Assembly (NCBI GenBank): GCA_034409195.1
Contig: DAOUMT010000079.1
Span: forward strand, 1-58,954
Source of the DNA: Dehalococcoidia bacterium
GTDB taxonomy: Bacteria > Chloroflexota > Dehalococcoidia > SZUA-161
Length of the DNA: 58,954 nt
Reading direction: 5' to 3'
The notes under the pieces are model-generated. The model made no database searches, had not been told where the DNA came from, and worked only from the letters and a program-made list of their open reading frames with translations. Shown here in pieces: positions 6,003 to 43,869 of the stretch. Each line of letters opens with the position of its first letter. Within the stretch, counting starts at the first letter, position 1. The position numbers and the translations under genes are program-made.

Positions 6003-6851
6003 TGTATCTACTACACCTCCTATCTTTCTTTTCAGTGGACTTTATCATATTTTCTTGCAACAGCCGACCTCTTTAGTATTTGGGCTTGGGGTGAGACATG
6101 AAAATGAATTTGCCACAAATCAGGGTCTGCAAATTGCGGCAGACCCAGTTTACAGCCGAATCCGCAAACTCGCAAGAGCTTTAGTTGGTATTTTCTCTGT
6201 GTCATTCAGCAGATTGTATCTATATCGTATTCGATATCGTACATGAATCCAACAAAATTATATCACTTGAGTCAAGAAACCAATTGCTACAATCCAGCCT
6301 CCATTTTGTTGTTTTTGCCGTCAAAAAGTCGAGGTTCTCCGTTATAAAACCAGTCTCGCTCCGGCCCTTGCAGGGATTTGAAGCCACAGTCGGATTGTCG
6401 CCTGGATTTATGCCGGTGCCTCCCTGCCCCTTTATCAAGGTCTCGGGAGTCGAGTGAAACTATTGACTTTTGTATTGCAACATGACATAATTTACGACGG
6501 CGACGCTCTCATAGAATTCACACCTTTTATCTTCTGCCGATTGATGATTGTAACTTAGTTGCTGGTGAAGGTAGCAAGGGCTCTGTACAAGTGATTTGCT
6601 CCTGTACAGAGGAGGGTGGCACGGTGGAAACGATAAGGGTGCTGATAGCTGACAATCAGGGCCCGTATTGCTCTGGGCTCGCCAGTATCCCAAAGGCTGA
6701 GCCCAACTTCCCCGTTTTTAGTGAAACCAGCGAAGACCTTCCAGTGATCGATAAGGCCCCAGCCCCATTATTCAGGCGCTGTACGCGTTCAGTTTTGGAG
6801 AGAATACAAAGCTGACCCATTTGTTAGTTGTGGCCTGCTGAGCTTGCGAAC

Positions 6852-7532
6852 ATGGAAAAGGTAAATTTACTGGCCAAAGTCCCCGTTTTTACTTCACTGA
6901 AGCCTGCCTATCTCGCAGAGCTTGCCAACAAGCTGACAACGCGGCATTACCGGAGAGGTGAGACTATTTTCCACAAAGACGACCCTGGTTCCATGCTTCA
7001 CATCATTAATGCCGGACAGGTAAAGATTACGACAACCTCCCCGGAGGGAGAGGAGGTAATCCTGGCCATCCTGACGGATAGCGACTTCTTTGGCGAACTC
7101 TCTCTGCTGGACGGCAGGCCTCGCTCAGCTAATGTAATAGCAATGGTAGACACTGAGGTTTTTACTTTGCACCGCGATGACTTCCTGGACGTTTTAGGCA
7201 AACACGCCGGGCTTGCCGCTGATATGCTGGCTGCTCTGAGCGACCGTTTGCGGCGCACTAATGTCTTGCTGGAGGACGCCATTTTTCTCGACCTGTCAGC
7301 GCGGCTTCGCAGGAGACTCATGGAGCTGAGTGAAAAGCACGGCCTCGTAACTAAAAGAGGTGTAGAGATAGACCTTCGTCTCACGCAGCAGGACTTAGCG
7401 AATTTCGTGGGAGCAAGCCGGGTTGCCATCAACAAACTGCTGGGCGTATTTCAAGATAAAGGGATAATCTGTATCGACAAGAAACGCATCACTATCCTCC
7501 GACCCGAAGAGATGCGAAAGCAAATACACTGA
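6852..7532 (+). CDS. Crp/Fnr family transcriptional regulator
   Basis: ORF 6828-7532, probable start MEKVNLL at 6852. The cNMP-binding-like FFGELSLLDGRPRSANV is followed by a C-terminal HTH (LTQQDLANFVGASRVAINKLL). Confidence 0.8.
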   Translation: MEKVNLLAKVPVFTSLKPAYLAELANKLTTRHYRRGETIFHKDDPGSMLHIINAGQVKITTTSPEGEEVILAILTDSDFFGELSLLDGRPRSANVIAMVDTEVFTLHRDDFLDVLGKHAGLAADMLAALSDRLRRTNVLLEDAIFLDLSARLRRRLMELSEKHGLVTKRGVEIDLRLTQQDLANFVGASRVAINKLLGVFQDKGIICIDKKRITILRPEEMRKQIH

Positions 7533-9088: not shown

Positions 9089-10165
9089 TCAAGCCGTCTC
9101 AGCATGAAAATACCTTCGCTGGAAGTACAAGGCCACATTTACCAGGCTGATAAGCACCGGCACCTCCACCAGCGGCCCTATGACAGCGGCAAAGGCCTGA
9201 CCTGAGCCGATACCGAACACTGCTACAGCTACAGCGATTGCCAGCTCGAAGTTGTTACTGGCAGCAGTGAAGGAGATGGTCGCTGTCTTAGAGTAGTCGG
9301 CACCTATTCTCCTGCCCATATAGAACGATACCAGGAACATAACCACGAAGTAGATGAGAAGCGGGACAGCGATGCGCACCACGTCCAGAGGCAGGTCAAT
9401 AATGTATTCGCCCTTGAGGGAGGACATAACCACTATGGTGAAGAGCAAGGCTATGAGAGTTACAGGGCTGATTCTGGGGATGAACTTCTTCTCGTACCAT
9501 TCCCTTCCCCTCACCCTGATGAATGCGAAGCGCGTGAGCATTCCCCCGAAGAAGGGTATGCCCAGGTAAATAAATACGCTCTGGGCGATCTGGCCTATGG
9601 TGACATGTACTGCCGTGCCTTGAAGCCCGAACAAACCCGGAAGCACCGTTATGAAGACATAGGCGTATACGGAGTAGAAAATTATCTGAAAGATGGAGTT
9701 GAAGGCCACCAGCCCGGCGGCGTATTCGCTGTCTCCCTTTGCCAGTTCGTTCCACACAATCACCATGGCGATGCAGCGGGCTAGGCCTATCATGATCAGC
9801 CCTTGCATGTAGTCTGGATACGGCCACAGGAACCCGAGGAATCCGATTGCCAGGAAGAACATTAGCAGGGGCCCGATTACCCAGTTCTGCACCAGAGAAA
9901 GCAGCAGCACGCGCCAGTTTCGGAACACCTTGCCCAGTTCCTCATACTTCACCTTGGCCAGCGGGGGATACATCATGAGTATGAGGCCGATAGCTATAGG
10001 TATGGAAGTCGTGCCTACTTGAAAGCGATTGATAAAATCGGCTGTGCCGGGAATAAAGTAGCCCAGCCCCACGCCCAACCCCATCGCCAGGAATATCCAG
10101 AGCGTGAGGAAGCGGTCTAATAAGGCAAGCCGACGCATGCCGGCCATTGACCCAGCTTTATTCAT
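9089..10165 (-). CDS. acr3: ACR3-family arsenite efflux permease
   Basis: 358-aa multi-[36 protein letters not shown] and the later ARCIAMV segment (with the conserved Cys) are typical ACR3 features. Confidence 0.85.
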
Positions 10166-13046: not shown

Positions 13047-13406
13047 CTATTTAGCACATTTCCGTAGGCAGCCAGGGCCTACGCGCCTGGCTTTTTTGAG
13101 CCGCTCTCTATCCTGTGCCACCAGTTCATTGCCCTTAAGCCCTTTCCTCACAGCCTCGACCAGGTCGGCGTAATACGGCTTAAATCCTTCTCTGTCAATG
13201 GAATACAACGACCACAGGCCGTCCTTCCTCAGTTTGAGGAAACCGGCATCGTAAAGTGCGCTCAGGTTGCGGGAGGCCCTGGTCTGTGAGATGTCCAGCG
13301 CCTGCATAACCTCACAAACGCAGCACTCTCTCACCAGGAGCAGGTTTAATATCCTGAGCCTGGTCTCGTCAGACAGCGCTCTCATAGCTTTGACCAAATC
13401 CCTCAT
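13047..13406 (-). CDS. arsR: ArsR/SmtB-family metalloregulator with ECCVCE (As(III)-type CVC) motif
   Basis: 119-aa ORF. LSDETRLRILNLLLVRECCVCEVMQALDISQTRASRNLSAL is a canonical ArsR wHTH. The Cys pair sits at the position of the E. coli ArsR ELCVCDL motif. Confidence 0.85.
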   Translation of the reverse strand: MRDLVKAMRALSDETRLRILNLLLVRECCVCEVMQALDISQTRASRNLSALYDAGFLKLRKDGLWSLYSIDREGFKPYYADLVEAVRKGLKGNELVAQDRERLKKARRVGPGCLRKCAK

Positions 13407-13790: not shown

Positions 13791-14171
13791 TTAAGTTTTA
13801 TCTTCTTGCTTCGCCTTCAGGGGGCAATGTTTAGTGCAAAATTCTTCGTCTAGGCTTTGCTCTTCTATCGTTAAAGCTTGCAGAACCTCCTCGCGCCAGC
13901 GCTCCAGAGTATCGTGGTTAATAAAGTAGTGAATGTGGTAGCCGCGCCTCAGCCCTTTGACCAGTCCGGCAGATTTAAGCACCCGTATATGCTGGGAAAC
14001 GGCAGACTGGGTAACTCCCAGAAAACCTGCCAGCGCGTTCACACACAGTGCATCAGGGTCGCGCTGTTGACAGAGCAATCTCACCAGTCTCAGACGGGTA
14101 GGGTCGGCGAGTGCGCTGAAAACCGCAGCTTGCTCTTCAATATTGCCCTGTCTATTTTCTTTCATATTCAT
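13791..14171 (-). CDS. ArsR/SmtB-family transcriptional regulator
   Basis: 126-aa ORF. ALADPTRLRLVRLLCQQ...LAGFLGVTQSAVSQHIRVLKSAGLV is the ArsR wHTH. No SD precedes the ATG. Confidence 0.8.
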   Translation of the reverse strand: MNMKENRQGNIEEQAAVFSALADPTRLRLVRLLCQQRDPDALCVNALAGFLGVTQSAVSQHIRVLKSAGLVKGLRRGYHIHYFINHDTLERWREEVLQALTIEEQSLDEEFCTKHCPLKAKQEDKT

Positions 14172-14393
14172 CAGCTTATAAGCATATACTAATATATTTT
14201 AATTATCTGTTCAAGACCGCTTTTTGTCAAGTGCTCTTATCAGAAAATTAGGTAGAAATACGTATCTTCAACGGACAATAAGATACTAGCCCTGCTCGGA
14301 TAAGATATGCTACAAATAGAGCTGGTGGAATATAGGCGTTCTCTCTGGGTAGCCAGAGTGTGGTGGTACCTGAACAGAAAGGAGTCTGAAAAC

Positions 14394-15056
14394 ATGAAAA
14401 TCAACCTGAAAGACAAAGCCTATGAAGTGGACGAGTTGGGTTTCTTAACAAATCATGACCATTGGGACGAAAATTTCGCATCGGAAATGGCATCTAGATT
14501 GAAAATACCCGAAGGGCTCTCCAAGAGGCACTGGGATGTAATTTATTTCATTAGAAAATATTTTTTCAAAAACGGCGTATGCCCTAGAGTTTTTGAAACA
14601 TGCAAAGCAAATAGATTAGCCATCCGAGACTTAGAGAAGCTCTTTCCCAGCGGCTACCAGCGAGGTGCCTGCCTGCTGGCAGGAATAAGTTACAAAGACC
14701 GTCTGGTGAATTACTACGGGGAACCCGTTCCTATACGTGTTGCTGAAAAAGAAGTGGCTAAACCAAAAGGTAAAGTTTACAGAATAGACGTATATGGATT
14801 TTTGGTGGATCCCGGTGAATGGGACGAAGACTACGCTGTAAATAAAGCATTGGAGATGAAGATTCCGGGAGGATTAACCAAAAAACACTGGGAAATAATA
14901 CAATATCTTCGCGATAGCTGGCAAAAGAATAGCCTTGTACCGACCGTATACGAGTGCTGTAAATCAAACAATATCGAGTCAGAGGACCTGGGAAAGCTAT
15001 TTCCAGACGGCTATCAAAGGGGAGCGATAAAAATCGCAGGATTAAGAATAATATAA
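14394..15056 (+). CDS. Tandem (fused) DsrC/TusE-like protein with two domains, both lacking the C-terminal Cys arm
   Basis: ORF 14307-15056. The ATG at 14394 follows AAAGGAG. Residues 1-100 and 126-220 each align with the DsrC encoded at 25009-25329 (E/DxxGFL, HW.VI.F.R, LFP.GYQRGA..AG). Domain 1 keeps GAC; domain 2 has GAI. Neither has the PKPTGCV tail. Confidence 0.75.
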   Translation: MKINLKDKAYEVDELGFLTNHDHWDENFASEMASRLKIPEGLSKRHWDVIYFIRKYFFKNGVCPRVFETCKANRLAIRDLEKLFPSGYQRGACLLAGISYKDRLVNYYGEPVPIRVAEKEVAKPKGKVYRIDVYGFLVDPGEWDEDYAVNKALEMKIPGGLTKKHWEIIQYLRDSWQKNSLVPTVYECCKSNNIESEDLGKLFPDGYQRGAIKIAGLRII

Positions 15057-15058
15057 GC

Positions 15059-15178
15059 CCTGCTCATTATACTCAGGATGATTTACCTACATCCTGAACC
15101 GCTTTGAACTCATGCCTAGAATTATTAGATTTTTCTAGGCATTATTGCCTATGCCATAATAAGCCGATTAGCCGATGT
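15059..15178 (+). promoter_or_regulatory. Copy A of a ~120-nt conserved upstream element shared with the sat operon; contains a candidate promoter and palindromic operator
   Basis: About 96 of 121 columns are identical, by hand alignment, to the reverse complement of 38649-38769. Inside: -35-like TTGAAC (15104-15109), a 16-nt spacer and -10-like TAGATT (15126-15131). These are bracketed by the inverted repeat TGCCTAGAA (15113-15121) / TTCTAGGCA (15133-15141). Confidence 0.6.
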
Positions 15179-15242
15179 CTGCTACCTAGCCTTAGAGTAT
15201 CATTTTCCTTAGGTTGTCGAATCACTATGTTATTGTTAAACC

Positions 15243-15776
15243 ATGGCTCTGAAAACGCTTTTAACGCAGAATAAAAACTCCATTTTGCAAAGATGGTTCA
15301 ATCTGATAGCAGATACGTATCCCACAGGCGTCTCAGGCTTTCTCAAGGATAACGACAGATTCACCAATCCGGTAGGCCATACAATCTCCCAGGAAATAAA
15401 CTCTCTTTATGATGAACTACTGCAGGACCGGGTAGACTCCGATAAAGCCGCAGCATCTCTGGACAATATTATTAAAATCAGAGCAGTTCAAGACTTCTCC
15501 CCTCAGAAAGCTATCTCCTTTGTTTTCCTGTTGAAAAAAGCTATAACAGATGAACTGGGGAGCGAGCTAGAGAAAAAACAGTCTTTCGGGGAATGGCTGA
15601 AGTTTGAGCCCGGGATAGACAAACTGGCATCTATAGCGTTCGACAAATACATGGAAAGCCGCGAGAAAATCTGCGAACTCCGGGTAAATGAGGTGAGGGC
15701 TGACAGAGAGATAGCTTTCAGGCTGCTCAGGTTGATGGGAGGTAAAAACGGGAAGCACGGCGAGGCTGTGGAATGA
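15243..15776 (+). CDS. RsbRD_N-like (globin-type sensor N-terminal) domain protein, translationally coupled to dsrM
   Basis: 177-aa ORF. ILQRWFNLIADTYPTGVSGFLKDNDRFTNPVGHTISQEINSLYDELL matches my memory of the RsbRD N-terminal domain. ATGA overlap with dsrM. No SD precedes its ATG. Confidence 0.5.
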   Translation: MALKTLLTQNKNSILQRWFNLIADTYPTGVSGFLKDNDRFTNPVGHTISQEINSLYDELLQDRVDSDKAAASLDNIIKIRAVQDFSPQKAISFVFLLKKAITDELGSELEKKQSFGEWLKFEPGIDKLASIAFDKYMESREKICELRVNEVRADREIAFRLLRLMGGKNGKHGEAVE

Positions 15777-16705
15777 ATGCCGTGTATCTTGTTTTCGGAA
15801 TCATCATACCCTATGCGGCCCTCTTCATCTTCGTCGTAGGACTTGTCTATCGCGTCGTGAGATGGGCAAGCTCGCCTGTTCCCTTCCGCATACCTACAAC
15901 CTGCGGGCAGCAAAAATCTCTCCCCTGGATCAAGTCAAAAAAAATCGAAAACCCTTACAACACTGCCGGCGTCATCGGCAGGATGGCACTCGAAGTGCTC
16001 GTGTTCCGGTCGCTGTTGCGGAACACGAAAACCGAACTGAGACGAGGGATTCAGAAACTCGTCTACAAAGACAGCAAGTTACTCTGGCTGGGGGCATTCG
16101 TCTTCCACTGGAGTCTTCTTATCATTCTACTGAGGCATTTAAGACTGTTCGTCGAGCCTGTGCCCGCTTTTGTCATCTCCCTTCAGAGATTGGATGGCCT
16201 TTTTCAGATAATGTTACCCACTCTGTACGTAACCGATATCCTCATTGTATTGGCACTGGGTTACCTCTTACTGAGAAGGATGGCGGGTGCGCAACTACGC
16301 TATATCTCACTGTTCTCCGACTACTTCGCAGTCTTGCTGCTGTTGAGCATAGCTCTTTCCGGCATTTTTATGCGGTACATTTTCAGAGTAGACCTAGTGA
16401 GTGTAAAGGAACTGGCGCTGGGAGTCTTGAGCTTCCATCCCTCTATTCCTGCAGCCGGAATCGGCCTGGCCTTTTATGTCCATCTTTTCCTCGTCTGTAC
16501 TCTATTTGCCTACTTCCCATTCAGTAAAATGGTTCACATGGCAGGGATCTTCCTCAGCCCGACGAGAAACCTGGCGAACAACAGCCGCATGCGCAGGCAT
16601 ATTAACCCCTGGAACTACTCTGTCAAGGTTCACACATATCAAGAGTGGGAGGACGAGTTCAGAGAGCACATGAAAGACGCCGGGTTGCCTTTGGAAAAGG
16701 AATGA
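15773..16705 (+). CDS. dsrM: DsrM, NarI-like membrane dihaem cytochrome b of the DsrMKJOP complex
   Basis: 310-aa multi-TM ORF immediately upstream of dsrK. The RVVRWASSPVPFRIPTTCGQQKS motif and conserved His in the TM helices fit DsrM. Confidence 0.85.
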   Translation: MNAVYLVFGIIIPYAALFIFVVGLVYRVVRWASSPVPFRIPTTCGQQKSLPWIKSKKIENPYNTAGVIGRMALEVLVFRSLLRNTKTELRRGIQKLVYKDSKLLWLGAFVFHWSLLIILLRHLRLFVEPVPAFVISLQRLDGLFQIMLPTLYVTDILIVLALGYLLLRRMAGAQLRYISLFSDYFAVLLLLSIALSGIFMRYIFRVDLVSVKELALGVLSFHPSIPAAGIGLAFYVHLFLVCTLFAYFPFSKMVHMAGIFLSPTRNLANNSRMRRHINPWNYSVKVHTYQEWEDEFREHMKDAGLPLEKE

Positions 16706-16706
16706 G

Positions 16707-18314
16707 ATGACGGATACAACAAAAAAACCAGAAGAATTATTGAAGTTAGATTACACCCCCCCTGAAAAGGGTTGGATGGAAACCCCCGTTGATTTCAAAA
16801 AGGGCACCTATTGCTACAGTGCGCCGCAGAAACATCAGGAATACCTGGGACTCCCGTATCCGAGACAATGGCAACCTTTCGATGCCGACTGGAAGCTGCC
16901 AGAGAACTGGAAACAGATAATACTCGAAGGAATGAATGAGCGCCTGAAAAAATATCGGTCCTTTCGGCTCTACATGGATATCTGCGTACGATGCGGTGCC
17001 TGCGCTGACAAGTGTCACTTCTTCATCGGCACCGGAGACCCCAAGAATATGCCGGTGCTCAGGGCCGAGCTGCTCCGGTCAGTTTACAGGAAGTATTTCA
17101 CCCTGGGGGGAAAGCTCTTCGGCAAAATAGGTGGAGCCAGGGAACTGACAGAGGACGTGCTGAAAGAATGGTACTACTACTTCTATCAGTGTACTGAGTG
17201 TCGCCGCTGCTCGGTCTTCTGCCCGTATGGCATTGATACCTGTGAAATAACGATGATGGCGCGAGAGCTGCTCAGCCTGGTCGGCTGCAACGTAGGCTGG
17301 GTCATCGAGCCGGCGTCTAACTGTTTCAGGACAGGAAATCACCTCGGCGTACCGCCTCACGCGTTTAAGGACACGCTGGATTTTGCCATAGATGAGGTAG
17401 AGGACCTAACTGGCGTCAAAGTTGAAGCTTCTGTCAACAGGAAAGGCGCGGAACTGCTCTTCATCACTCCTTCCGCCGATTACTTCGCCAGCCCCCACTG
17501 GTATACCTTCCTGGGATATTTAATGCTTTTCCATGAAATCGGGCTTGATTACACCTGGAGCGCCTATGCTTCTGAAGGAGGTAATTTCGGCCTCTTCCAC
17601 TCCGCTGAGATGATGAAAAGGCTGAATGCTAAGATGTACGCCGAAGCCAAAAGGCTGGGAGTGAAATGGATCCTCGGGGGAGAGTGCGGCCATATGTGGA
17701 GGGTTGTCCACCAGTATATGAACACCGTCAACGGGCCTGCCGATTTTCTGGAGGAACCGGCATCTCCGATAACGGGTACGAAGTTTGAAAACGCGAAAGC
17801 CACAAAAATGGTTCATATCTGCGAATTTACCGCCGACCTTATCAAGAACAATAAACTGAAGCTAAATCGCAGCCGCAATGACCATTGGAAGATGACCTTC
17901 CATGATTCCTGCAATCCGGCCAGGGCTATGGGGCTTTTTGAGGAGCCGAGATACATAATCAAGAATGTATGCAACAATTTCTATGAGATGCCGGAGAATA
18001 CCATAAAAGAATACACCTTCTGCTGCGGCAGCGGGGCCGGGCTGGGTTCGGATGAGAATATAGAAATGAGGTTGAGGGGCGGCCTTCCCAGGGCGAACGC
18101 TGTAAAGTATGTTAAGGAAAAACACGGAGTGAATCTCCTCACCTGTATTTGCGCCATTGATAGAGCCGTGCTTCCAACCCTACTGCAATACTGGGTTCCC
18201 GGGGTAGAGGTCAGCGGTCTTCATGAACTGGTTGGGAACGCGCTGGTGATGAAGGGCGAGAAGGAGCGAACAACCGATATGCGCGGCACACCCTTCAAAA
18301 AAGAGGGAAGCTAA
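16707..18314 (+). CDS. dsrK: DsrK, HdrD-like catalytic FeS subunit
   Basis: 535 aa. Two ferredoxin motifs (CVRCGACADKCH, CTECRRCSVFCPYG) and a C-terminal CCG domain (HDSCNPAR...FCCGSGAG). Confidence 0.9.
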   Translation: MTDTTKKPEELLKLDYTPPEKGWMETPVDFKKGTYCYSAPQKHQEYLGLPYPRQWQPFDADWKLPENWKQIILEGMNERLKKYRSFRLYMDICVRCGACADKCHFFIGTGDPKNMPVLRAELLRSVYRKYFTLGGKLFGKIGGARELTEDVLKEWYYYFYQCTECRRCSVFCPYGIDTCEITMMARELLSLVGCNVGWVIEPASNCFRTGNHLGVPPHAFKDTLDFAIDEVEDLTGVKVEASVNRKGAELLFITPSADYFASPHWYTFLGYLMLFHEIGLDYTWSAYASEGGNFGLFHSAEMMKRLNAKMYAEAKRLGVKWILGGECGHMWRVVHQYMNTVNGPADFLEEPASPITGTKFENAKATKMVHICEFTADLIKNNKLKLNRSRNDHWKMTFHDSCNPARAMGLFEEPRYIIKNVCNNFYEMPENTIKEYTFCCGSGAGLGSDENIEMRLRGGLPRANAVKYVKEKHGVNLLTCICAIDRAVLPTLLQYWVPGVEVSGLHELVGNALVMKGEKERTTDMRGTPFKKEGS

Positions 18315-18682
18315 TGTACGACAAAGGCAAAATCATTGCCGGAATTGTAATCTTCCTAATTCTGATTACCTTTCCTATATGGTATCTCACGGCTCACAGT
18401 CAAACCAGTCATGTGCCCCAACTCCAGGCTGCCGCGGGTAATGAGTGTGTAGAGTCCACAAGCTACATGTTAGATAACCACATGAAATTGCTAGATGAGT
18501 GGAGGACTCTGGTTGTCCGTGATGGGAATGACACCTACATAGCAAGCAATGGGCAAGAGTGGAATATAAGCCTGACCGGGACGTGTCTGACTTGCCATGA
18601 TAAGACCCAATTCTGCGACCAATGCCACACCTATGAAGGAGTAACTCCCAATTGCTGGAGCTGTCACTTTGCCGGATATTAA
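18314..18682 (+). CDS. dsrJ: DsrJ, trihaem cytochrome c
   Basis: 122 aa. N-terminal TM anchor and three CxxCH motifs (CLTCH, CDQCH, CWSCH). Start overlaps the dsrK stop. Confidence 0.85.
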   Translation: MYDKGKIIAGIVIFLILITFPIWYLTAHSQTSHVPQLQAAAGNECVESTSYMLDNHMKLLDEWRTLVVRDGNDTYIASNGQEWNISLTGTCLTCHDKTQFCDQCHTYEGVTPNCWSCHFAGY

Positions 18683-18693
18683 TACCTGCCTTG

Positions 18694-18727
18694 CCTATGA
18701 GGGAGTAACTCCCAATTGCTGGAGTTG
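18694..18727 (+). repeat. 34-bp direct repeat of the dsrJ 3' end (second copy, in the dsrJ-dsrO spacer)
   Basis: 18630-18663 (cctatgaaggagtaactcccaattgctggagctg) versus 18694-18727 (cctatgagggagtaactcccaattgctggagttg). Two mismatches, 64-nt offset. Confidence 0.85.
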
Positions 18728-18773
18728 CCAAATCAGTGACACCGGCAGTGGCAATATTACTGGGGAGCAGTAG

Positions 18774-19544
18774 ATGGACGTCGATAGGCGAGGATTTATA
18801 AAAATGGCGGGAATTGCCTTCGTTGGGCTTCTCGCAGTAAAGCCGATTATTGATGTATTCTCGAGAACTGAAGCGCCGAAAAAGTCTGTAGTAGCGGAAG
18901 TATCGAGCCAGACAAAGTGGGGCATGGCTATTAAAATCGCTAACTGCAAAGATGGATGCACAGAATGCATAGCTGCCTGTAATTCCGTCCATAACGTGCC
19001 TGACATCCCTAACCCGAAGCATGAGATTAAATGGATATGGGACGTTAATTATGAGGATGTATTCCCTGAACAAAACAGCCCCTTCCTTGCCAATTCGTTG
19101 AAAGGGCTACCCGTTCTCGTACTCTGCAATCACTGTGATCACCCCCCCTGCGCGAGGGTTTGCCCGACAGCCGCTACGTGGAAGCGCGCAGACGGAATAG
19201 TTATGATGGACTATCACAGGTGTATCGGATGCCGATACTGCATGGCTGCCTGTCCCTACGGGGCACGCAGCTTCAACTGGGTAGACCCGCGACCCTACAT
19301 CAAGCAGATCAATCCAGATTACCCGACGCGAACCAAAGGTGTGGTGGAGAAGTGCGACTTCTGTGAGGAAAGGCTTGCCAAAGGCTTGATTCCGGCATGC
19401 GTAGAAGCGTGCACGGAGAAGGCTCTGGTTTTTGGCGACCTGAATGACCCAAGCTCGGATATCAGAAAGCTCCTCGCAGCAAACTACAGCATTCAGCGTA
19501 AAGCTGAACTGGGGACAGGGCCCAACGTTTATTATGTAATCTAG
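18774..19544 (+). CDS. dsrO: DsrO, periplasmic FeS ferredoxin-like subunit with Tat signal
   Basis: 256 aa. Twin-arginine motif MDVDRRGFIKMAG. Multiple CxxCxxCxxxC clusters (CNHCDHPPCARVCP, CIGCRYCMAACP). Confidence 0.85.
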   Translation: MDVDRRGFIKMAGIAFVGLLAVKPIIDVFSRTEAPKKSVVAEVSSQTKWGMAIKIANCKDGCTECIAACNSVHNVPDIPNPKHEIKWIWDVNYEDVFPEQNSPFLANSLKGLPVLVLCNHCDHPPCARVCPTAATWKRADGIVMMDYHRCIGCRYCMAACPYGARSFNWVDPRPYIKQINPDYPTRTKGVVEKCDFCEERLAKGLIPACVEACTEKALVFGDLNDPSSDIRKLLAANYSIQRKAELGTGPNVYYVI

Positions 19545-19554
19545 GATAGTCATA

Positions 19555-20745
19555 ATGATAGAAAAAGCGTTTACCGGAAGTCGAAAATATTGGGCATGGA
19601 TACTTTTCCTGCTTGTTATTATAGCTATAGGTTTTGGCTACTATCTTTTGCAATGGTACCGTGGATTAGGAGTAACCGGCATGAGCCGGGATGTCTCCTG
19701 GGGCCTTTATATAGCCAATATGACCTTCCTCGTCGGAGTAGCAGCCGGGGCGGTCATGGTAGTCTTGCCCTACTACCTGCATAACTACAAAGCATTCGGA
19801 AAGGTTACTACTTTCGGTGAGTTCCTGGCTGTAGCTGCGGTAATCATGTGCATGTTGTTCGTCACTATAGACCTTGGTCAACCGACGCGACTTGTAAATC
19901 TCTTTATCCACCCACAACCCCACTCCATTCTTTTCTGGGACATAGTTGTCCTGTCAATTTACCTTCTGCTTAATCTGGTGGTAGGCTGGTATTTACTGAG
20001 GTCCCAGTATTATGGGGAACAGCCGAAGGCCTGGGTCAAACCACTGATCCTGATTTCCATCCCCTGGGCCATCAGCATTCACACGGTTACAGCTTTCATC
20101 TATAGCGGACTGGCTTCGAGGCCTTTCTGGTTGACAGCGCTTATGGCGCCCCGCTTCCTATCTTCAGCGTTCGCTGCCGGCCCCGCTCTGCTAATCATAG
20201 CCTGCCTGGTCATGAAAAGATTCGCCCATTTCGATGTCGGGAAGGAAGCGCTGCAAAAGCTGGCACAAATTGTGCTCTATGCAACAATCATCACTGTGTT
20301 CTTCCTCATAGTAGAGGGTTTTACCGTCTATTATAGTCAGGTTCCGGAGGACATGAGTCACCTTGACTACTTCTTCGTAGGCCTGAATGGACAAACAACA
20401 CTTATACCCTGGATATGGACTTGCCTTATATTCTGGGTAGCAGCCATCGTCTTGCTGATCAACCCCAGGACACGCAAGAATGAAAAAACTCTGGTACTCG
20501 CTGCCGCCATGGTATTCGTTTCCATGTGGCTAGACAAGGGATTGGGTTTGCTTGTGCCCGGATTTACTCCCTCGCCTCTAGGTACAATAACTCAATACCT
20601 GCCTACAGTGCCCGAGATATTAATCTCTCTGATGGTCTGGGGAATAGGTGCCCTGATACTTACCATCTTCTATAAAATAACCATCGGGGTCAAAGAAGAG
20701 AGGGGAGAAGAGGAATCACATGCTATCTCTTTCTCATCGCAGTGA
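19555..20745 (+). CDS. dsrP: DsrP, NrfD/PsrC-like integral membrane subunit
   Basis: 396-aa, ~10 TM ORF following dsrO. NrfD-like topology. Confidence 0.85.
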   Translation: MIEKAFTGSRKYWAWILFLLVIIAIGFGYYLLQWYRGLGVTGMSRDVSWGLYIANMTFLVGVAAGAVMVVLPYYLHNYKAFGKVTTFGEFLAVAAVIMCMLFVTIDLGQPTRLVNLFIHPQPHSILFWDIVVLSIYLLLNLVVGWYLLRSQYYGEQPKAWVKPLILISIPWAISIHTVTAFIYSGLASRPFWLTALMAPRFLSSAFAAGPALLIIACLVMKRFAHFDVGKEALQKLAQIVLYATIITVFFLIVEGFTVYYSQVPEDMSHLDYFFVGLNGQTTLIPWIWTCLIFWVAAIVLLINPRTRKNEKTLVLAAAMVFVSMWLDKGLGLLVPGFTPSPLGTITQYLPTVPEILISLMVWGIGALILTIFYKITIGVKEERGEEESHAISFSSQ

Positions 20746-20783: not shown

Positions 20784-20813
20784 TTGACATAGCCAGAAAT
20801 AGGCTGCTATACT
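20784..20813 (+). promoter_or_regulatory. Candidate sigma70-type promoter of dsrABD
   Basis: TTGACA (20784-20789), an 18-nt spacer and TATACT (20808-20813). It lies about 50 nt upstream of the dsrA ATG, with a GGGAGG RBS at about 20853. Confidence 0.5.
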
Positions 20814-20865: not shown

Positions 20866-22029
20866 ATGGATGATAAAACACCCATGGTAGACGAGCTCGA
20901 AAAAGGACCGTGGCCCAGCTATGTGAAAGAACTAAAGCGGGCTGCAAAGAAGCATGACTCGGTAAAGGACCTGATAAAGGTCCAGGAACGGTCTTTCCAG
21001 AGGAAGATGACCCAATGGAAGCACGGCGGCATCGTTGGCGTCAAGGGCTACGGCGGTGGTGTCATCGGGAGATACATTCAGAACCCCGAGGACTTCCCCA
21101 ACGTGGCGGCATTCCATACCCTGCGTGTCAACCACCCGTCGGGATGGTTTTATGACACGAAGGCGCTGAGAACTATCTGTGATATCTGGGACAAGCACGG
21201 CAGCGGGATGACTAATTTCCACGGCTCGACCGGCGATATAATCCTCCTGGGGTGCACCTCTGAGGAGCTCCAGCCAACCTTTGATGAGTTGAGCGAGCAC
21301 GGGTTTGACCTGGGAGGCTCAGGATCCGACCTGAGGTCACCCACAGCCTGTGTCGGCCCGGGACGCTGTGAATGGGCGTGCTTCGATACCCTGGACTTAA
21401 TCTACGACATAACCAAGTCCTATCAAATGGAGCTTCATCGGCCCCCCTTCCCCTATAAAACCAAGATCAAGGCCTCTGGCTGCCCCAACGACTGCGTGGC
21501 TGCCATAGCCAGGTCTGATTTCAGCTTAATCGGCACCTGGAGAGATAATTTGAGGATCGACCAAGACGCGGTCAAAAAGTACGCAGATAGTGGATTCGAC
21601 ATCCAGCGTCTGGTTGTCGCCAAGTGCCCCACCGAGGCAATAGAGCTGGTGAAGGGCAAACTCGAACTGACACATCCCGAGGACTGCGTCAGATGCATGC
21701 ACTGCATAAACCTGATGCCAAAGGCAATCAGGCCCGGTGTTGACACCGGCGCAACCGTGCTGGTCGGTGCCAAAGCGCCCATAATCCACGGTGCCGTCCT
21801 CTCCACAGTACTCATTCCTTTTATCAAGGTACAACCTCCCTACACTGAGATAAAGCAGCTTTGGGAGAAAATCATGGAATGGTGGGATGAAAACGGCAAG
21901 ACCAGGGAGAGGTTAGCCGAGCTTATTGACAGGGTGGGAATGCCTGCATTTCTGAAGGCTATAGAGGTAAAGCCTTCTCCCCAGATGGTATACACACCCA
22001 GAGCAAATCCGTACTTCTTCTGGGGATAG
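20866..22029 (+). CDS. dsrA: Dissimilatory sulfite reductase alpha subunit
   Basis: 387 aa. ELEKGPWPSYVKELK, sirohaem-FeS motif CVGPGRCEWAC...GCPNDC and the ferredoxin insert CPTEAI...CVRCMHC. Confidence 0.92.
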   Translation: MDDKTPMVDELEKGPWPSYVKELKRAAKKHDSVKDLIKVQERSFQRKMTQWKHGGIVGVKGYGGGVIGRYIQNPEDFPNVAAFHTLRVNHPSGWFYDTKALRTICDIWDKHGSGMTNFHGSTGDIILLGCTSEELQPTFDELSEHGFDLGGSGSDLRSPTACVGPGRCEWACFDTLDLIYDITKSYQMELHRPPFPYKTKIKASGCPNDCVAAIARSDFSLIGTWRDNLRIDQDAVKKYADSGFDIQRLVVAKCPTEAIELVKGKLELTHPEDCVRCMHCINLMPKAIRPGVDTGATVLVGAKAPIIHGAVLSTVLIPFIKVQPPYTEIKQLWEKIMEWWDENGKTRERLAELIDRVGMPAFLKAIEVKPSPQMVYTPRANPYFFWG

Positions 22030-22112
22030 CCTGAAGTGTTGGATGGCAGAATGAAGCAGGACAAGTCTGTTTTAGATTAATAAACCAGAGAATTTAGAGG
22101 AGGAAGATATTA

Positions 22113-23195
22113 ATGTGCCCGACTGATATTGGCCCCCCCGATTTTAAGACGATGCTCCCCGATGTGATTAAGAAGAACTATGGTAAATGGAAGTATCACG
22201 AGATACTAAAGCCCGGAGTTATGAAGCATGTCGCCGAGTCCGGAGACGAGCTTTATACGGTAAGGGCCGGGTCACCCAAGCTGGTGAGCACAGACTTTAT
22301 TCGCGATCTCTGTAATGTAGCTGACAAGTACTGTGACGGACATCTCAGGTTCACCAGCCGGTATAACCCGGAGTTTCTGACCCCCAAAAAGGAGAATGTC
22401 GAACCTATAATCAAAGAGCTGAATAAGCTTGGATTGCCTGTGGGCGGCACTGGAAGTGGCCCGGGGGCCTGCCTGTCTAATGTTATTCATACCCAGGGGT
22501 GGATACATTGCCACGGCGCAGCCTCGGATGCCTCGGGGATTGTCAAAGCGATGATGGATGAGCTTTACGACTATTTCGTTGGCAAGAAGACGCTTCCTGC
22601 CAAAATGAGGCTTTCACTTGCTTGCTGCCTTAACATGTGTGGAGCCATTCACGCCAGCGACGTGGCCGTAGTGGGAATGCATACAAGGGTGCCCAATATA
22701 GACCATGAGAAGATGCGTGCCATGTGCGAGATACCTACGGTTGCGGCAGCCTGCCCCACAAAGGCTATCCGGCGCCATCCTGACCCCAATATAAAGAGCG
22801 TGGTCGTCGATGAGTCGAAGTGCATGTACTGCGGCAACTGCTTTACAGTCTGCCCTGCGATGCCCCTGGCAAATGCTGAGGGAGACGGGGTCGCTATTTT
22901 TGTGGGCGGCAAGGTATCCAATGCTCGCAAGCCGCCTATGTTGTCCCGCGTAGTTGTGCCCTACCTGCCCAATAATCCGCCCCGCTGGCCGGAGGTGGTG
23001 AATACTGTCAAAAACATCATTGAAGTATACGCAGAAAATGCCCGGTGGGGTGAGCGTATGGGCGAGTGGATACAGAGAGTAGGTTGGGAGAGATTCTTTA
23101 AGCTTACGGACCTTCCTTTCTCTGTGCAGCTTATTGACGACTTCGAGTTAGCCCGAGACACGTTCAGAAGCACAACCCAGTTCAAATGGACCTAG
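22113..23195 (+). CDS. dsrB: Dissimilatory sulfite reductase beta subunit
   Basis: 360 aa. [48 protein letters not shown] closely matches the canonical DsrB N-terminus. ACCLNMCG and [12 protein letters not shown] are present. Confidence 0.92.
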
Positions 23196-25543: not shown

Positions 25544-26350
25544 TTACCAATGGGTCGATATCCGCATCTTAGAATTAATTTCCTTTACGCCCGGCACCTT
25601 CCTGGCTATCTCTCTTATCTTATCAGCTTCCACTAATGACCCCACAGACCCACTGATAGTGATAGCACCCCCGTTTGCCTCAATTTCAATGCCGCCGTCT
25701 GCGTTGTCTGCATCCCTGGCAACTGCGGCTCTAACCTCGGTGCCCAGCACCATATCATCCATAATCTTTTGCGACTCAGGAGTCGGCTTGAATTTATCCA
25801 GGTTTGATATATAAGATACAAGCCCACAGGCATCGTCAATGCTTATATGCTCAAGGTTAATAACAACATCGTATAGCGCAGGGTCATACCAATCTGCATG
25901 GTAAAGGAACCTTGTCCACTTGACCCTTTTCTCATCGATATCCTTGATGAATTTTATGGCTTTTTCCCGGCTTAAATTGTTACGCTCCATAGCAGCTTTT
26001 ATCCGGAATTCCATATCTGCAATAACCCTGACTCTCAAGACAAGCGGAATTTCCTTGAGCAGTAAATGCCCTGCATGCCCGTGGTAAACGACTTTATCAT
26101 TCCTGACCTCTTTGTAAATAGCTGCCCGAATGTAGGCAAGATAGTGAACCCTTTCTGTAGTTAAACGTTCCAGAAATCCCGGCGGTTCGGCAAGTGCATC
26201 AGACAGCTTCTCCAATGGCGCACCATATTGCCGGGCGGCTCTAACTATCACTTCCCTGGATATACAGCGATAGCCGAGTTTTTCGGCCAGGCATTCAGCC
26301 AGGGTCTGCCCACCACTGAATGTGCCCCTCGATATGGTAATTATTGCCAT
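25544..26350 (-). CDS. Cytidylate kinase-like (AAA-type NTPase) protein with C-terminal BON-like domain
   Basis: 268 aa. MAIITISRGTFSGGQTLAECLAEKLGY is typical of the cytidylate-kinase-like family. The C-terminal ITISGSVGSLVEADKIREIARKVPGVKEI is BON-like. Confidence 0.6.
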   Translation of the reverse strand: MAIITISRGTFSGGQTLAECLAEKLGYRCISREVIVRAARQYGAPLEKLSDALAEPPGFLERLTTERVHYLAYIRAAIYKEVRNDKVVYHGHAGHLLLKEIPLVLRVRVIADMEFRIKAAMERNNLSREKAIKFIKDIDEKRVKWTRFLYHADWYDPALYDVVINLEHISIDDACGLVSYISNLDKFKPTPESQKIMDDMVLGTEVRAAVARDADNADGGIEIEANGGAITISGSVGSLVEADKIREIARKVPGVKEINSKMRISTHW

Positions 26351-26503
26351 CGCACCCTCCTATTCTCCACGCCCTGATTATAATCAATGAATGGGTCTGT
26401 GACAATAAATACACCCGGAAGGCATTAAGGGTCATCTTTTAGCGACTTCAGGAAAGCGGCAATAACTCTCAATATTGCAGGATATCTGATATCGAAGACG
26501 GTG

Positions 26504-26941
26504 TTATTCTTTGATAACTATAAGCCCGGCCGCAGCCAGAGTCAGAATTACTGCTATTATAAGGGCAAATACAATATATATGCCCCCTTTGCTTCGAATC
26601 ATTCCGATGAACCCGCCCCACATTCCAAGCACTGCGGCAGAGCAAGAAACAGCTATACCCAGCATGGCTATTCCATCGCCATAGGACAGCTTACTCAGGT
26701 ACCAATGCCCTTCAGGAGTTTTGAGGACGCCGGCACACCCACTCCAGATGGCGTCCACACTGGTGCCCCTCCAGAGTTCGTTGAGAGAGCATGTCAGGTT
26801 TACGTAGCCATTGGATACCATGTAGATTATTATGCCGACTATTGAAATTAATATACCAAGAAGGGCAACCCAGTAGGCAATTTCTCCGTAAATGACTCCT
26901 GTGACCGGTACTTCCGAAGCCTTTTCCTTTTCCTTGTCCAT
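26504..26941 (-). CDS. Small integral membrane protein (3-4 TM), family uncertain
   Basis: 145-aa hydrophobic ORF, 15 nt downstream of the TauE gene. It may be the kind of small membrane partner often found beside TauE permeases. I cannot confirm DUF1634. Confidence 0.45.
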   Translation of the reverse strand: MDKEKEKASEVPVTGVIYGEIAYWVALLGILISIVGIIIYMVSNGYVNLTCSLNELWRGTSVDAIWSGCAGVLKTPEGHWYLSKLSYGDGIAMLGIAVSCSAAVLGMWGGFIGMIRSKGGIYIVFALIIAVILTLAAAGLIVIKE

Positions 26942-26956
26942 AGCCCATCACCTGAG

Positions 26957-27934
26957 TTACAACTTATTAAACCCATCAATAACCAGTTTGACCCCTGCAC
27001 CGATCATTACCAGTATAATCATCCATCGGATAAATTGCGCCTTCACTGTGAACATTAACCTGGCCCCTATGCTCGTTCCAATCACTACTCCAATTATGCA
27101 CGCTACAGCGAATAGTGGAAAGATACCTCCACGCATGATGTAGGGCCAGACAGCAGCAGTGTCACCCATGCCTATCAAGACCTTACTGGAAGCAGCCGCA
27201 ACCTTAAGCGGAGCAAGCATGACCAGATTGAATACTGGAACCATAGCCCAGCCGGCCCCCACGCCAAACATACCCGAGACTATTCCGCATCCGCAAAACA
27301 GAATGATCCCGATGGGTGCCTTGGTAACCTTATAGTGTACAACCTTATCCATCGATTGTTCCCAGTAAGACATGGCTAGCCCCAGCCTTTTTGTAAAGCC
27401 GTCCTCTTTCTTTACTTCGGGATACTCGACTTTCTTCCCACCAAAAAGTATCAGAAATGCAATGAATATTACCAGGAAACCCAAAATAAGCCTTATCAAA
27501 GCCTCGCCGAAATCACCCGCTGAAGCTTCAACATAGCCAGCTAGTAGAGCACCCACTACAGCAAAGATAGTGTAAGGGAGGGCTGCAAAGAAGAGCATCT
27601 TTACGTTCGCCAGCCCCCTGCGCAGGAACGGACGAGCGGCAATTAGTGACCCGGCCATAGCTACGACCAATCCAGTTGCCCGGATAATGAACGAATTTAT
27701 GGGTGTAAAACCCATCATCAGAGGTGTGAACACAACCCCACCGCCCACACCACCCAGCACAGCAATAATACCTATTACTGTGCATATAGCTACAAACACG
27801 AAGAAGAACGCCACTGGACTTAAACCCATACCGCTTGGGTCTGCTGTTTCTGCAGCATAGCCTATGCCACTGCTGAACAGAAATATCATTACAGCAAGGA
27901 GGACGACGACGGAAAGCTTTGATAGCCTCATCAT
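26957..27934 (-). CDS. TauE/SafE (DUF81) family anion permease, last large gene of the qmo operon
   Basis: ORF 26957-28039. The probable start MMRLSKLSVVVLL at 27934 avoids overlap with qmoC. Contains the duplicated Gly-rich motifs GGVGGGVVFTPLMM and FGVGAGWAMVPVF. Confidence 0.75.
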   Translation of the reverse strand: MMRLSKLSVVVLLAVMIFLFSSGIGYAAETADPSGMGLSPVAFFFVFVAICTVIGIIAVLGGVGGGVVFTPLMMGFTPINSFIIRATGLVVAMAGSLIAARPFLRRGLANVKMLFFAALPYTIFAVVGALLAGYVEASAGDFGEALIRLILGFLVIFIAFLILFGGKKVEYPEVKKEDGFTKRLGLAMSYWEQSMDKVVHYKVTKAPIGIILFCGCGIVSGMFGVGAGWAMVPVFNLVMLAPLKVAAASSKVLIGMGDTAAVWPYIMRGGIFPLFAVACIIGVVIGTSIGARLMFTVKAQFIRWMIILVMIGAGVKLVIDGFNKL

Positions 27935-27953
27935 CTTAATAATGAATCTCAGG

Positions 27954-29084
27954 TTACCTAACTGCTCTCCCGACTTGCCTGGCATAGGCCATAGCCAGCG
28001 TCCTGTAAATGATGTGAGCTCCTTTGGAGAATGGAGCATATATAAGCAGACTGAACAAAAGCCAGAGGTGAACCAGATATACCGAGTAGGTCGCTGTGGA
28101 CAGCTTAGCCAGTCTAACCACTTCGGTAGCTATCCCGCTGATAGTAACTAAGGAAAGCAGCAGGATGAGAAACCAGTCGAAATAGGTCGTATTGCTTCTG
28201 TTACTACCTGTGGTGGAAAACCTCCTGTAGACTGCCAACACACAGCCAGCAAGAAGCAGAAGAGAGCCCAGATTCCCTGCTATCTTGATAGGACTGGTCA
28301 ATGGATATGGTGAATCGATCCCCGATAAATGATAGACCGCGCCTAGAAAGGCAGCGAGCAGGAGAAGGATAAATCCGTAGAAGATCGCTAAATGCGTATA
28401 ACGGTTGATTTTATTCGCCTGACATTTGCCGAAATCGCCATGTTTAAATATATCTACTGCGGCAAAGGCAAAGCTCTTGAGCCAGCCACTCCGGGCGCCG
28501 GATGTCGGCGGTGGGTCTGCTTCAAACTCGTTGATACCTTTCCAGAATCTGACGCCCCCGACAGCAGCCACGACTGCGACGAAGGCAACTATTATAGCCA
28601 TACCGATGTAGGCGTCGGGGTTTGGAATCATATGATTTTCGACAATCGCACCTTTGGGAAGCGTAAGGTCACCCGCGATACCGAGAAAGGCAAATAGAAG
28701 CGCCGCAGGAAGGGCAAGCATAGGCAGCAGATACATAGGTGATGAAAATGCTTTTCTCAAAAAGCCCGGGAGAGCATAACTCATAATTGCATAGCTTCTG
28801 ACGGCAGCCAGGACATCTCCCGGTTTGGCGTCCCGGGGACAGTATGCTGTGCAGTCATTACATCGATGGCATAGCCACACATCGGGGTCCTTCAGCAATC
28901 TATCCTTCAACCCCCGCTGAGCCCACATCATCTCTTTCCTTGGGAAAGGTTTACCGTCAGGAGACAGAGAACAGACCACCGAGCAGGTGCCGCACTGAAA
29001 GCATTTTTTCAGTGACTCGCCACCAAGGCCAATTACATCTCTGACGAATTCACTGTCAGGTTTAATAACGTTTCGTTTCTCCAT
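27954..29084 (-). CDS. qmoC: QmoC, HdrC-like FeS domain fused to an HdrE/NarI-like membrane cytochrome b
   Basis: 376 aa. CFQCGTCSVVCS and CHRCNDCTAYCP at the N-terminus, followed by about 6 TM helices. Confidence 0.85.
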   Translation of the reverse strand: MEKRNVIKPDSEFVRDVIGLGGESLKKCFQCGTCSVVCSLSPDGKPFPRKEMMWAQRGLKDRLLKDPDVWLCHRCNDCTAYCPRDAKPGDVLAAVRSYAIMSYALPGFLRKAFSSPMYLLPMLALPAALLFAFLGIAGDLTLPKGAIVENHMIPNPDAYIGMAIIVAFVAVVAAVGGVRFWKGINEFEADPPPTSGARSGWLKSFAFAAVDIFKHGDFGKCQANKINRYTHLAIFYGFILLLLAAFLGAVYHLSGIDSPYPLTSPIKIAGNLGSLLLLAGCVLAVYRRFSTTGSNRSNTTYFDWFLILLLSLVTISGIATEVVRLAKLSTATYSVYLVHLWLLFSLLIYAPFSKGAHIIYRTLAMAYARQVGRAVR

Positions 29085-29094
29085 ATGACCTGTT

Positions 29095-30297: not shown

Positions 30298-30333
30298 ATC
30301 GTTATCTTCAGGTCAGCAACTCTGCCAAGCCAA

Positions 30334-33826: not shown

Positions 33827-33836
33827 GTAGTTCTCC

Positions 33837-34658: not shown

Positions 34659-34748
34659 AGCACCTCATTAGGACTCCAGGTACCGTTGGCGATACCTGGA
34701 GTCCTTTGCACTCAATCAACCTTTATTTTTAGCTGCGGACTCACCAGA

Positions 34749-36656: not shown

Positions 36657-36663
36657 CTCAATT

Positions 36664-37113: not shown

Positions 37114-37134
37114 CCATTGCCTCCTTTCTCATTA

Positions 37135-43868: not shown

Positions 43869-43869
43869 T

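Follow-up and report, generated by a model that had tools for sequence, protein, structure and literature searches.

The 58,954-nucleotide contig DAOUMT010000079.1 of a sulfate-reducing Dehalococcoidia bacterium (Chloroflexota; assembly GCA_034409195.1), referred to here in its full length as the window, carries two copies of a noncoding cassette of about 125 nucleotides (nt). One copy stands upstream of an RsbRD_N-domain gene, which we take from its position to be dsrT, with dsrMKJOP and dsrAB behind it; the other stands upstream of sat-aprBA-qmoABC. In related genomes, a third copy precedes the operon for the F1Fo ATP synthase (atp). The cassette is previously undescribed, and it is a real and conserved cis-regulatory element, kin to reused promoter regions and to regulon signals. 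We regard as settled that the repeat exists, which operons it precedes (the ATP synthase among them), how it is oriented, that it arose by segmental duplication and that evidence for an RNA structure is lacking. With moderate confidence, we further read the cassette as a paralogous promoter region (cis-regulatory DNA) that was duplicated before core energy operons and gives them shared transcriptional control.

Under this reading, one ancestral upstream region would have been copied by segmental duplication before the core energy operons of a Dehalococcoidia lineage, the recipients being sat-aprBA-qmo, dsrT-dsrMKJOP(-dsrAB), the F1Fo ATP synthase operon and, in some relatives, dsrAB and the operon of a TauE-like permease. 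The copies would since have been kept by selection, bringing these operons under one transcriptional control. Putative protein-binding sites are a 7-2-7 inverted repeat (TAGGCAT-TA-TTGCCTA), TGCCTA half-sites within a palindrome of 31 base pairs (bp) and tandem GCCGAT repeats. These blocks would directly adjoin, on the upstream side, a weak -35 and a conserved -10 of the form TAnnnT, and a common regulator acting on them could activate or repress all the operons together. If TAnnnT is the -10, the element would be the upstream control region of an activator-dependent promoter, with the GCCGAT block abutting the -35 position.

Beyond Desulfovibrio, for which Rex is the chief lead (PMC4045070), little is known of how sulfate-reduction genes are controlled, and sulfate-reducing Chloroflexota are known from metagenome-assembled genomes only, their reductive Dsr pathway being inferred (PMC10591310). 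Here, one conserved cis-signal links three parts of the energy metabolism of an uncultured clade: sulfate activation, the Dsr membrane complex and ATP synthase. The cassette predicts a single energy-metabolism regulon, and its 16-bp palindrome and GCCGAT repeats supply a defined DNA probe for finding the regulator. It is also a natural example, clearer than most, of how a regulon can grow when an entire promoter region is copied and pasted, since gene fragments still betray the donor locus.

The repeat in the window

Copy 1 lies at 15059-15183 on the plus strand and copy 2 at 38644-38769 on the minus strand, and copy 1 is about 80% identical to the reverse complement of 38644-38769 over 121-125 nt (MAFFT, blastn and a repeat search). 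A sequence-only reading made earlier had proposed the pairing of 15059-15178 with the reverse complement of 38649-38769, which was recovered by MAFFT, the repeat search and blastn/nhmmer. Between the two copies, blastn gave 80.2% identity over 121 nt with one 1-nt gap; the repeat search returned the arm pair 15059-15121/38707-38769 (79%, 63 nt) and the adjoining pair 15120-15183/38644-38707 (81%, 64 nt), and the cassette pair is the longest and best repeat of the whole window. At the 3′ end, identity goes about 5 nt beyond the limit drawn in that reading, to 15183/38644. The reading's statement that the window holds no comparable second noncoding similarity agrees with an nhmmer search by a two-copy profile, which gave exactly two matches in the window (E about 1e-41 each), the next having E > 5.

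Both copies are in sense orientation to their own downstream operon, as had been proposed. Copy 1 starts 3 nt past the stop codon of a tandem-DsrC gene (14307-15056), and the ATG of dsrT (15243) is 64-65 nt beyond 15178. Copy 2 is intergenic, between a divergent NarL-type response-regulator gene and sat, whose ATG (38492) is 156-157 nt beyond 38649. A palindrome search of the element found internal palindromes only, with no terminal inverted repeats at the cassette ends, in keeping with the earlier view that it is not a miniature inverted-repeat transposable element (MITE). A 10-nt match upstream of the tandem-DsrC gene (14288/9-14297/8), formerly offered as a possible third site, is due to chance, with a blastn-short E of 5.4 and many equal matches. 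The 10-mer is kept in the closest relative, L017, only, and not in L016 or L022.

Copies in related genomes and their targets

Copies were collected by protein-guided look-ups, two DNA-pattern scans (public genomes and metagenomes) and a profile hidden Markov model (HMM) of the alignment. The genome scan applied a degenerate core pattern to one genome per species (185,579 species), and the metagenome scan a slightly relaxed version of it; the majority of copies came from pattern searches in which part of the core was fixed. The closest Sat proteins, with up to 95% identity, belong to Chloroflexota/Dehalococcoidia metagenome bins such as RBG_13_48_17, and the nearest genome found is Chloroflexi bacterium DBS2-1.bin62, whose RsbRD_N protein is 98% identical.

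The searches yielded 41 distinct copies, all of them from Dehalococcoidia/Chloroflexi, all intergenic and all (41/41) in sense to the downstream operon. They precede sat (14), another type of ATP sulfurylase (1), dsrT (8), atp (15), dsrA (1) and TauE-like genes (2). The genome scan gave 16 matches, all in Dehalococcoidia/Chloroflexi bins, with at most three exact cores per genome. Among the 28 loci from the metagenome scan, 20 were true copies with matching flanks; the other eight (five distinct sequences) had no matching flanks and were rejected as chance matches, their number being roughly as expected. In three genomes, the three copies precede sat, dsrT and the F1Fo ATP synthase operon, respectively. 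The last of these operons was identified by ATPase_gene1, ATP-synt_A, C, B, delta (by position) and alpha; its copy, the third per genome, lies outside the window and marks the most frequently recovered target. One locus (L039) has a copy between dsrP and dsrA, and two (L043 and L053) have a copy before a TauE-like permease with a kinase/BON gene.

Orthologues of copy 1 were found at L016, L017 and L022, and those of copy 2 at L001, L011, L024, L026 and L031. The whole element stands before sat in L001/L002 (Sat 95%), and relatives with Sat 85-95% identical keep it before both the sat and the dsrT operons. At L004 and L008/L009 (Sat 85-86%), dsrT-dsrMKJOP is divergent from a cytidylate-kinase/BON gene plus sat, and the 3′ core is found in sense before both operons despite the altered gene order. 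With the alignment HMM, a further copy emerged upstream of dsrT in L019, as did a weak trace upstream of sat in L057 (Sat 79%). Apart from these and the copies already listed, nhmmer found none in the window or in 0.53 megabases of fetched flanks, and the more distant sat loci L055/L056 and L059 have no recognisable element. In L019 (CAZNSC010000138.1), the element precedes an ATP sulfurylase 30% identical to the window Sat, followed by a normal aprBA; here the sat gene has evidently been replaced and the upstream cassette retained.

The retention of the cassette in relatives down to 85% Sat identity upholds the proposal of a conserved, orientation-locked cis-element common to sat-apr-qmo and dsrT-MKJOP. 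A generic scattered repeat had been named as the outcome that would overturn this proposal, and the low number of exact cores per genome and the uniform sense orientation show that it is not one. The narrower idea of a module specific to sulfate reduction failed, given that the ATP synthase is the third and most often recovered target, with dsrAB and the TauE-like permease as occasional ones. Because its targets are sat, dsrT, atp and occasionally dsrAB or a TauE-like gene, and because all copies are intergenic and in sense, the element marks core energy operons; it is neither a generic repeat nor a sulfate-reduction-specific signal.

Origin of the copies by segmental duplication

The copies form three sequence groups (window-like, group 2 and group 3) that cluster by lineage, not by operon, with GATTAGYCGATGT in all window-like copies and GATTGGTCGATGC in all group-3 copies. 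Within a genome, homology extends over about 125 nt between the sat and dsrT copies, about 125 nt between sat and atp, and 260-290 nt between dsrT and atp. The extra dsrT-atp stretch consists of the dsrT leader and about 100 nt of frameshifted dsrT coding sequence. Such a remnant of the first 25-35 codons of dsrT lies in the atp leaders of five window-like loci (L014 1162-1227, L015 5099-5194, L020 1245-1310, L028 6174-6260 and L032 11323-11394), matching by tblastn at up to 95% over 22 residues. In L023 and L045, which belong to other lineages, the atp copies are preceded by sat-type upstream sequence and, in divergent orientation, the 5′ fragment of a truncated NarL-type response-regulator gene, 63-85 codons long (L023 3837-4090, with one frameshift; L045 1256-1444). 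Because remnants of the dsrT and response-regulator genes sit in atp leaders, whole upstream segments have evidently, and in our view beyond dispute, been copied from the dsrT or sat locus to the atp operon. Identity is 77-94% between paralogues and 75-95% between orthologues. The three paralogues of B_CHL_03 share 90-94% identity, pointing to some gene conversion.

A practical consequence concerns metagenome assemblies, which the repeat interrupts or joins wrongly at the very loci that serve as sulfur-cycle markers, as is seen from contig breaks, N runs and a likely chimera. Contigs start in or next to the element at L005, L006, L007 and L049 and end there at L024 and L051. In L003, a scaffold of RBG_13_48_17, N runs at 9500-10000 fall exactly over the element, which made this locus uninformative. 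L030, in which a sat-type upstream half is followed by an atp-type downstream half, is probably a chimeric assembly.

Anatomy of the cassette

Alignment A3, comprising 38 distinct copies, is the basis of all block, pair and hexamer counts. Conservation is block-wise with a variable spacer, three blocks reaching 1.61, 1.86 and 1.49 bits/column against about 0.6-1.1 elsewhere. The upstream part of the cassette has 0.7-1.1 bits/column. It is followed by the block TTTCTAGGCATTATTGCYTA (15132-15151; 1.61 bits/column), largely unconstrained by the search pattern, a variable 7-mer (15152-15158; 0.91), the block ATAAGCCGATTRGYCGATG (15159-15177; 1.86), partly fixed by the search pattern, a variable stretch of 20-21 nt (15178-15197; 0.78) and a hexamer (15198-15203; 1.49).

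Three motifs stand out. The 31-bp palindrome reads ATGCCTAGAA-N11-TTCTAGGCAT in copy 1 (15112-15142, plus strand) and ATGCCTAGAAA-N10-TTTCTAAGCAT, with one mismatch, in copy 2 (38685-38716, minus strand); across copies its 3′ arm is nearly invariant and its 5′ arm decays. The 16-bp 7-2-7 inverted repeat, a candidate dimer operator, reads TAGGCAT-TA-TTGCCTA in copy 1 (15136-15151, plus strand) and TAAGCAT-TA-TTGCTTA in copy 2 (38676-38691, minus strand), with a matching change in both half-sites. Its half-sites have at most two mismatches in 31 of the 38 copies, and five mismatches in group 2, where the repeat is lost. The tandem 8-mers AGCCGATT-AGCCGATG of copy 1 (15162-15177, plus strand) appear as AGCCGATTAGTCGATG in copy 2 (38650-38665, minus strand) and as AGCCGATTGGTCGATG in other lineages. 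In L057, a diverged palindrome, ATGCCTAC-N15-GTAGGCAT, together with GCCGATG-N4-GCCGATG, is found upstream of dsrA.

Position of the promoter

Both the position of the promoter and the action of a common regulator are matters that we infer: the universal TAnnnT would be the -10, with transcription starting near 15210 and 38616. In the dsrT operon, the candidate core promoter is TATCAT (15198-15203, plus strand), 20 nt after CGATG; before sat, it is the extended -10-like TGC-TAACAT (38623-38631, minus strand), 21 nt after CGATG. TAnnnT occurs at a fixed 20-21 nt from CGATG in 38/38 aligned copies and lies outside the search pattern, the chance of finding it at those two offsets being about 0.04 per independent sequence. 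The invariant alignment columns of the hexamer are T137, A138 and T142, so that T at -12, A at -11 and T at -7, as in a sigma-70-type -10, are present in all 38 copies. CGATG-N21-TAnnnT is also kept before sat in the distant loci L057 (TGT-TAGCAT) and L059 (TAGAAT), where little else survives.

The sequence-only reading had placed a promoter-like core further upstream, TTGAAC-N16-TAGATT in copy 1 (15104-15131, plus strand), with its -10 in the loop of the 31-bp palindrome, and TCGAAC-N17-TATATT in copy 2 (38696-38724, minus strand). This core is present in the window-like lineage, where it scores best in the window by a simple weight matrix, but copy 1 is below the threshold of the consensus scan and copy 2 was not reported by it. 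Groups 2 and 3 lack it, having a GGAGGG-like sequence in place of the TAGATT/TATATT -10, and the one promoter feature common to all copies is the downstream TAnnnT. With the lineage-specific promoter, the 7-2-7 palindrome would fall at about +1 to +13 as a repressor operator; either promoter reading makes the element a promoter/operator cassette.

Other candidates were tried and rejected. An alternative -10 of the form nAnAAT in the "loop", with TTTCTA as -35, looked good among the pattern-selected copies, but it is partly forced by the search pattern and is lost in L057 and L059. A sigma-54-type -24/-12 in GGCATTATTGC has the wrong spacing, and a leader peptide was dismissed as the short open reading frames (ORFs) with ATG in the palindrome change frame and length between copies. 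Separately, the dsrP-dsrA spacer of the window, which holds no element copy at the place where L039 has one, contains a canonical promoter-like TTGACA-N18-TATACT for dsrA (20784-20813, plus strand), indicating that the organism uses standard promoters.

RNA or DNA-level function

The option of a 5′-leader RNA, also raised earlier, found little in its favour. There was no window match in Rfam at the gathering score, and at a permissive threshold both regions gave only noise with E > 4. The hairpin described in the sequence-only reading (GC-A-TTATT...AATAA-GC) does exist as a stem, pairing in 96% of cells, but the covariation test showed no compensatory change: two-sided changes number 0 in the 38 copies, and shuffles were not exceeded. 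The TAGGC/GCCTA stem likewise has 0 two-sided changes and does not exceed shuffles. In the long palindrome, 82% of cells are paired and the covariation score is 0.199 versus 0.188 in shuffles; its two-sided changes come from a single lineage split (GAAAT/ATTTC to GAAGC/GCTTC), and its mismatches (G-T 38, A-C 32, other 47) have no sense-strand bias. RNAalifold proposed a stem of 5 pairs only (-4.0 kcal/mol; covariation term -0.22).

Folding was better than in shuffles for each of the window copies (z = -3.05 and -2.20), mostly owing to the long palindrome. Alignment diversity is limited, so the covariation tests leave room for weak structure. Neither window leader contained a terminator-like site. 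First start codons lie anywhere from 65 to about 230 nt beyond the core, a spread that suits a promoter and not a ribosome-binding-site switch. On balance, the evidence favours a function at the DNA level.

Weighing of the explanations

Several observations weigh against a shared promoter region kept by selection. The -35 is poor, as ATGnnn/TGCAGC matches TTGACA at 2-3 of 6 positions at 16-18 bp upstream of TAnnnT, and the consensus scan found no sigma-70 promoter above threshold on the relevant strand of the two window regions. The window-like lineage has a better-scoring promoter-like pair inside the element, use of which would transcribe the 3′ half. Core conservation is partly ascertainment because the search pattern fixed part of the core, and regulator sites are not usually so strict as to leave blocks of 20 nt unchanged among paralogues and orthologues alike. 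The presumably dead dsrT remnant is 72-87% identical to dsrT, about the same as paralogous copies to each other (77-94%), so paralogue similarity alone is no proof of selection. One-sided changes in the two short stems have a G-T excess over A-C (14 vs 2 and 32 vs 1) that would fit an RNA, although these counts reflect few independent events. The case for the best candidate regulator, the NarL-family response regulator divergent from sat, consists of synteny and site geometry. Furthermore, group 2 (L004, L008 and L019) keeps the 3′ core without the palindrome and without an adjacent regulator gene, which means that more than one factor, or RNA polymerase itself, may read the element.

A possible explanation, though one we do not think likely, is that the element or its 3′ half is a transcribed 5′-leader RNA, made from the lineage-specific TTGAAC-N16/17-TAnATT with a start near 15138/38689. 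It would act in cis, either as a hairpin (GGCAUUAUU...AAUAAGCC) that stabilises the 5′ end or as a leader that binds a ligand or protein and so couples the expression of sat, dsr and atp. That promoter-like pair outscores any other site in the window-like group and would put the well-paired GGC.TTATT/AATAAGCC stem exactly at the RNA 5′ end, yet it is absent in groups 2 and 3. The one-sided changes in the short stems are mostly compatible with G-U pairs, but neither stem has a two-sided change. Folding beyond shuffles comes mostly from the long palindrome, whose 5′ arm decays and whose G-T and A-C mismatches are about equal. Sequence conservation of such strictness is typical of an RNA element; against this stand the small RNAalifold stem, the absence of an Rfam family, the window leaders without a terminator and the inconstant distance to the ribosome-binding site. 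More doubtful is the proposal that the 3′ half (GGCAUUAUUGCYUA-N7-AAUAAGCCGAUUGGUCGAUG onward) is a leader RNA of a new class that binds a metabolite or protein reporting energy or sulfur status. If true, it would sense, for example, adenylates, adenosine 5′-phosphosulfate (APS) or sulfite, and would thereby govern, in cis, how much ATP sulfurylase/APS reductase, Dsr membrane complex and ATP synthase sulfate-reducing Dehalococcoidia make. The cassette resembles the cis-regulatory leader RNAs and riboswitches of Rfam in being a conserved, orientation-locked block upstream of several operons of related function, and differs in having no Rfam match, covariation, terminator or fixed relation to the start codon.

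It is improbable that the copies persist as neutral remnants of a recent segmental duplication or of gene conversion, with no shared regulatory role. The scars do show that whole upstream segments were copied, dead gene fragments included, the dead dsrT remnant matches dsrT about as well as the element copies match one another, and the B_CHL_03 paralogues suggest conversion. However, the core blocks are near-invariant between lineages in which Sat differs by about 15% and AtpB by about 50%, the flanking leader is unalignable, and the element is kept before the same three operons in at least five species-level genomes. Its block-wise conservation with a variable 7-nt spacer is also unlike a uniform young duplicate. 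A small mobile repeat that happens to carry a promoter, whether a MITE, a repetitive extragenic palindromic (REP) element or a Correia-like element, is very improbable indeed. A repeated noncoding block of about 125 nt with internal palindromes, at which assemblies often break (L005, L006, L007, L024, L049 and L051), would suit such an origin, but terminal inverted repeats are lacking, a target-site duplication was nowhere seen, and no match was found in plasmid or phage collections. In addition, exact-core copies number at most three per genome and hold orthologous positions, always in sense, and the copied segments differ in length (125 nt; 260-290 nt; one with a response-regulator fragment).

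Comparison with known systems and candidate regulators

The closest known concept is promoter reuse. Putative mobile promoters have been defined as stretches of 50 nt or more that are at least 80% identical and stand before unrelated genes of the same genome, and their survey covered the interval from -150 to -50 before the start codon (Matus-Garcia, Nijveen and van Passel, 2012; PMC3575422). The window pair reaches this identity over its 121 nt (80.2%; arms 79-81% over 63-64 nt), and the products of the first genes downstream are not paralogous (RsbRD_N-domain protein, ATP sulfurylase and ATP synthase subunits). The dsrT copy (-184 to -65) overlaps the surveyed interval and the sat copy (-277 to -157) is outside it. 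The likeness consists of similar noncoding DNA before unrelated genes, proposed regulatory rewiring, no known insertion sequence and no Rfam match. The present copies differ in being old and orthologously placed across several species-level genomes, in linking functionally related operons (sat/apr/qmo, dsr and atp) and in carrying scars of the donor locus (dsrT and response-regulator fragments).

Dimers of the NarL type (NarL/NarP of E. coli) bind 7-2-7 inverted heptamer sites. The palindrome of the cassette likewise has two inverted 7-bp half-sites with a 2-bp gap, and a NarL/VraR-family regulator gene adjoins one target. However, the half-site TAGGCAT fits the heptamer TACYYMT at 5/7 positions only, and the palindrome is absent from group 2 genomes. 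The NarL/VraR-family response regulator (38841-39542) and a GAF-PAS-HisKA_3 kinase (39723-41399), both on the plus strand and divergent from sat, are candidate trans-acting factors. The pair remains divergent from sat down to 77% Sat identity, with synteny in L001, L011, L012, L024-L026, L031, L034, L057 and L059. Other candidate regulators are two ArsR-family genes (13047-13406 and 13791-14171) upstream of the tandem-DsrC gene and a Crp/Fnr gene (6828-7532).

The Rex box has the consensus TTGTGAA-N4-TTCACAA. A search of the window for this 18-bp box with up to three mismatches gave three matches versus 2.2 expected, none of them in the two upstream regions, and no Rex-type protein was found among the window ORFs scanned. 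In Desulfovibrio, sat, qmoABCD, adk and ppaC respond to Rex, and dsrABD, apsAB and dsrMKJOP are predicted targets (PMC4045070). The two systems are alike in that one cis-signal is common to sulfate-reduction and energy-conservation operons, the pathway being controlled as a unit. The cassette nevertheless does not belong to the Rex system, and the two differ in the shared unit, which here is a 125-bp homologous block and for Rex is an 18-bp operator that arose independently at each promoter.

Downstream operons and neighbouring genes

Copy 1 is followed on the plus strand by the operon of the RsbRD_N-domain gene (15243-15776) and dsrMKJOP (15243-20745 in all), then by dsrAB (20866-23195). No Shine-Dalgarno-like sequence is present ahead of the dsrT ATG (15243). 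The block ACTATGTTAYTGT (15227-15274, plus strand), just ahead of the dsrT start, is also kept in the atp leaders of L014/L020. Copy 2 is followed on the minus strand by a gene string (25544-38492) that begins with sat (38492-37290) and continues with aprBA, a CxxCxxCC protein, qmoABC-like genes, an Fe-S protein, a TauE-like permease and a cytidylate-kinase-like/BON gene. In the sat-specific leader (38535-38585, minus strand), a possible long-range helix AATACTCTCA...TGAGAGTAATT, with GAGGG as an alternative partner, was picked out by eye, as was ATATTC...GAATGT at the matching place in L004; the sat leader downstream of the cassette may be a separate structured RNA. On the opposite strand, a promoter-like TTGAAC-N17-TACAAT (38805-38833, plus strand) ends 8 nt before the ATG of the response regulator (38841), which suggests that its mRNA is leaderless or nearly so.

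The cytidylate-kinase-like/BON protein (25544-26350, minus strand) was also found at L004, L008, L019, L043, L053, L055 and L056. Its gene is consistently linked to sat and/or the TauE-like permease, whether as the last gene of the sat operon, directly ahead of sat or as part of a cassette-headed permease operon. Past the kinase, the plus strand at 41611-49228 carries a gene set with homologues in L001 that bear Radical_SAM, NirdL-like/AsnC, sirohaem-synthase, GlutR, porphobilinogen deaminase and TP_methylase/HEM4 domains; this set looks like an alternative haem/sirohaem biosynthesis cluster adjoining the sat locus. Finally, L008 (11318-16176), as also L009, has two successive aprBA pairs after sat, which are about 86% and 56-63% identical to the window AprBA.

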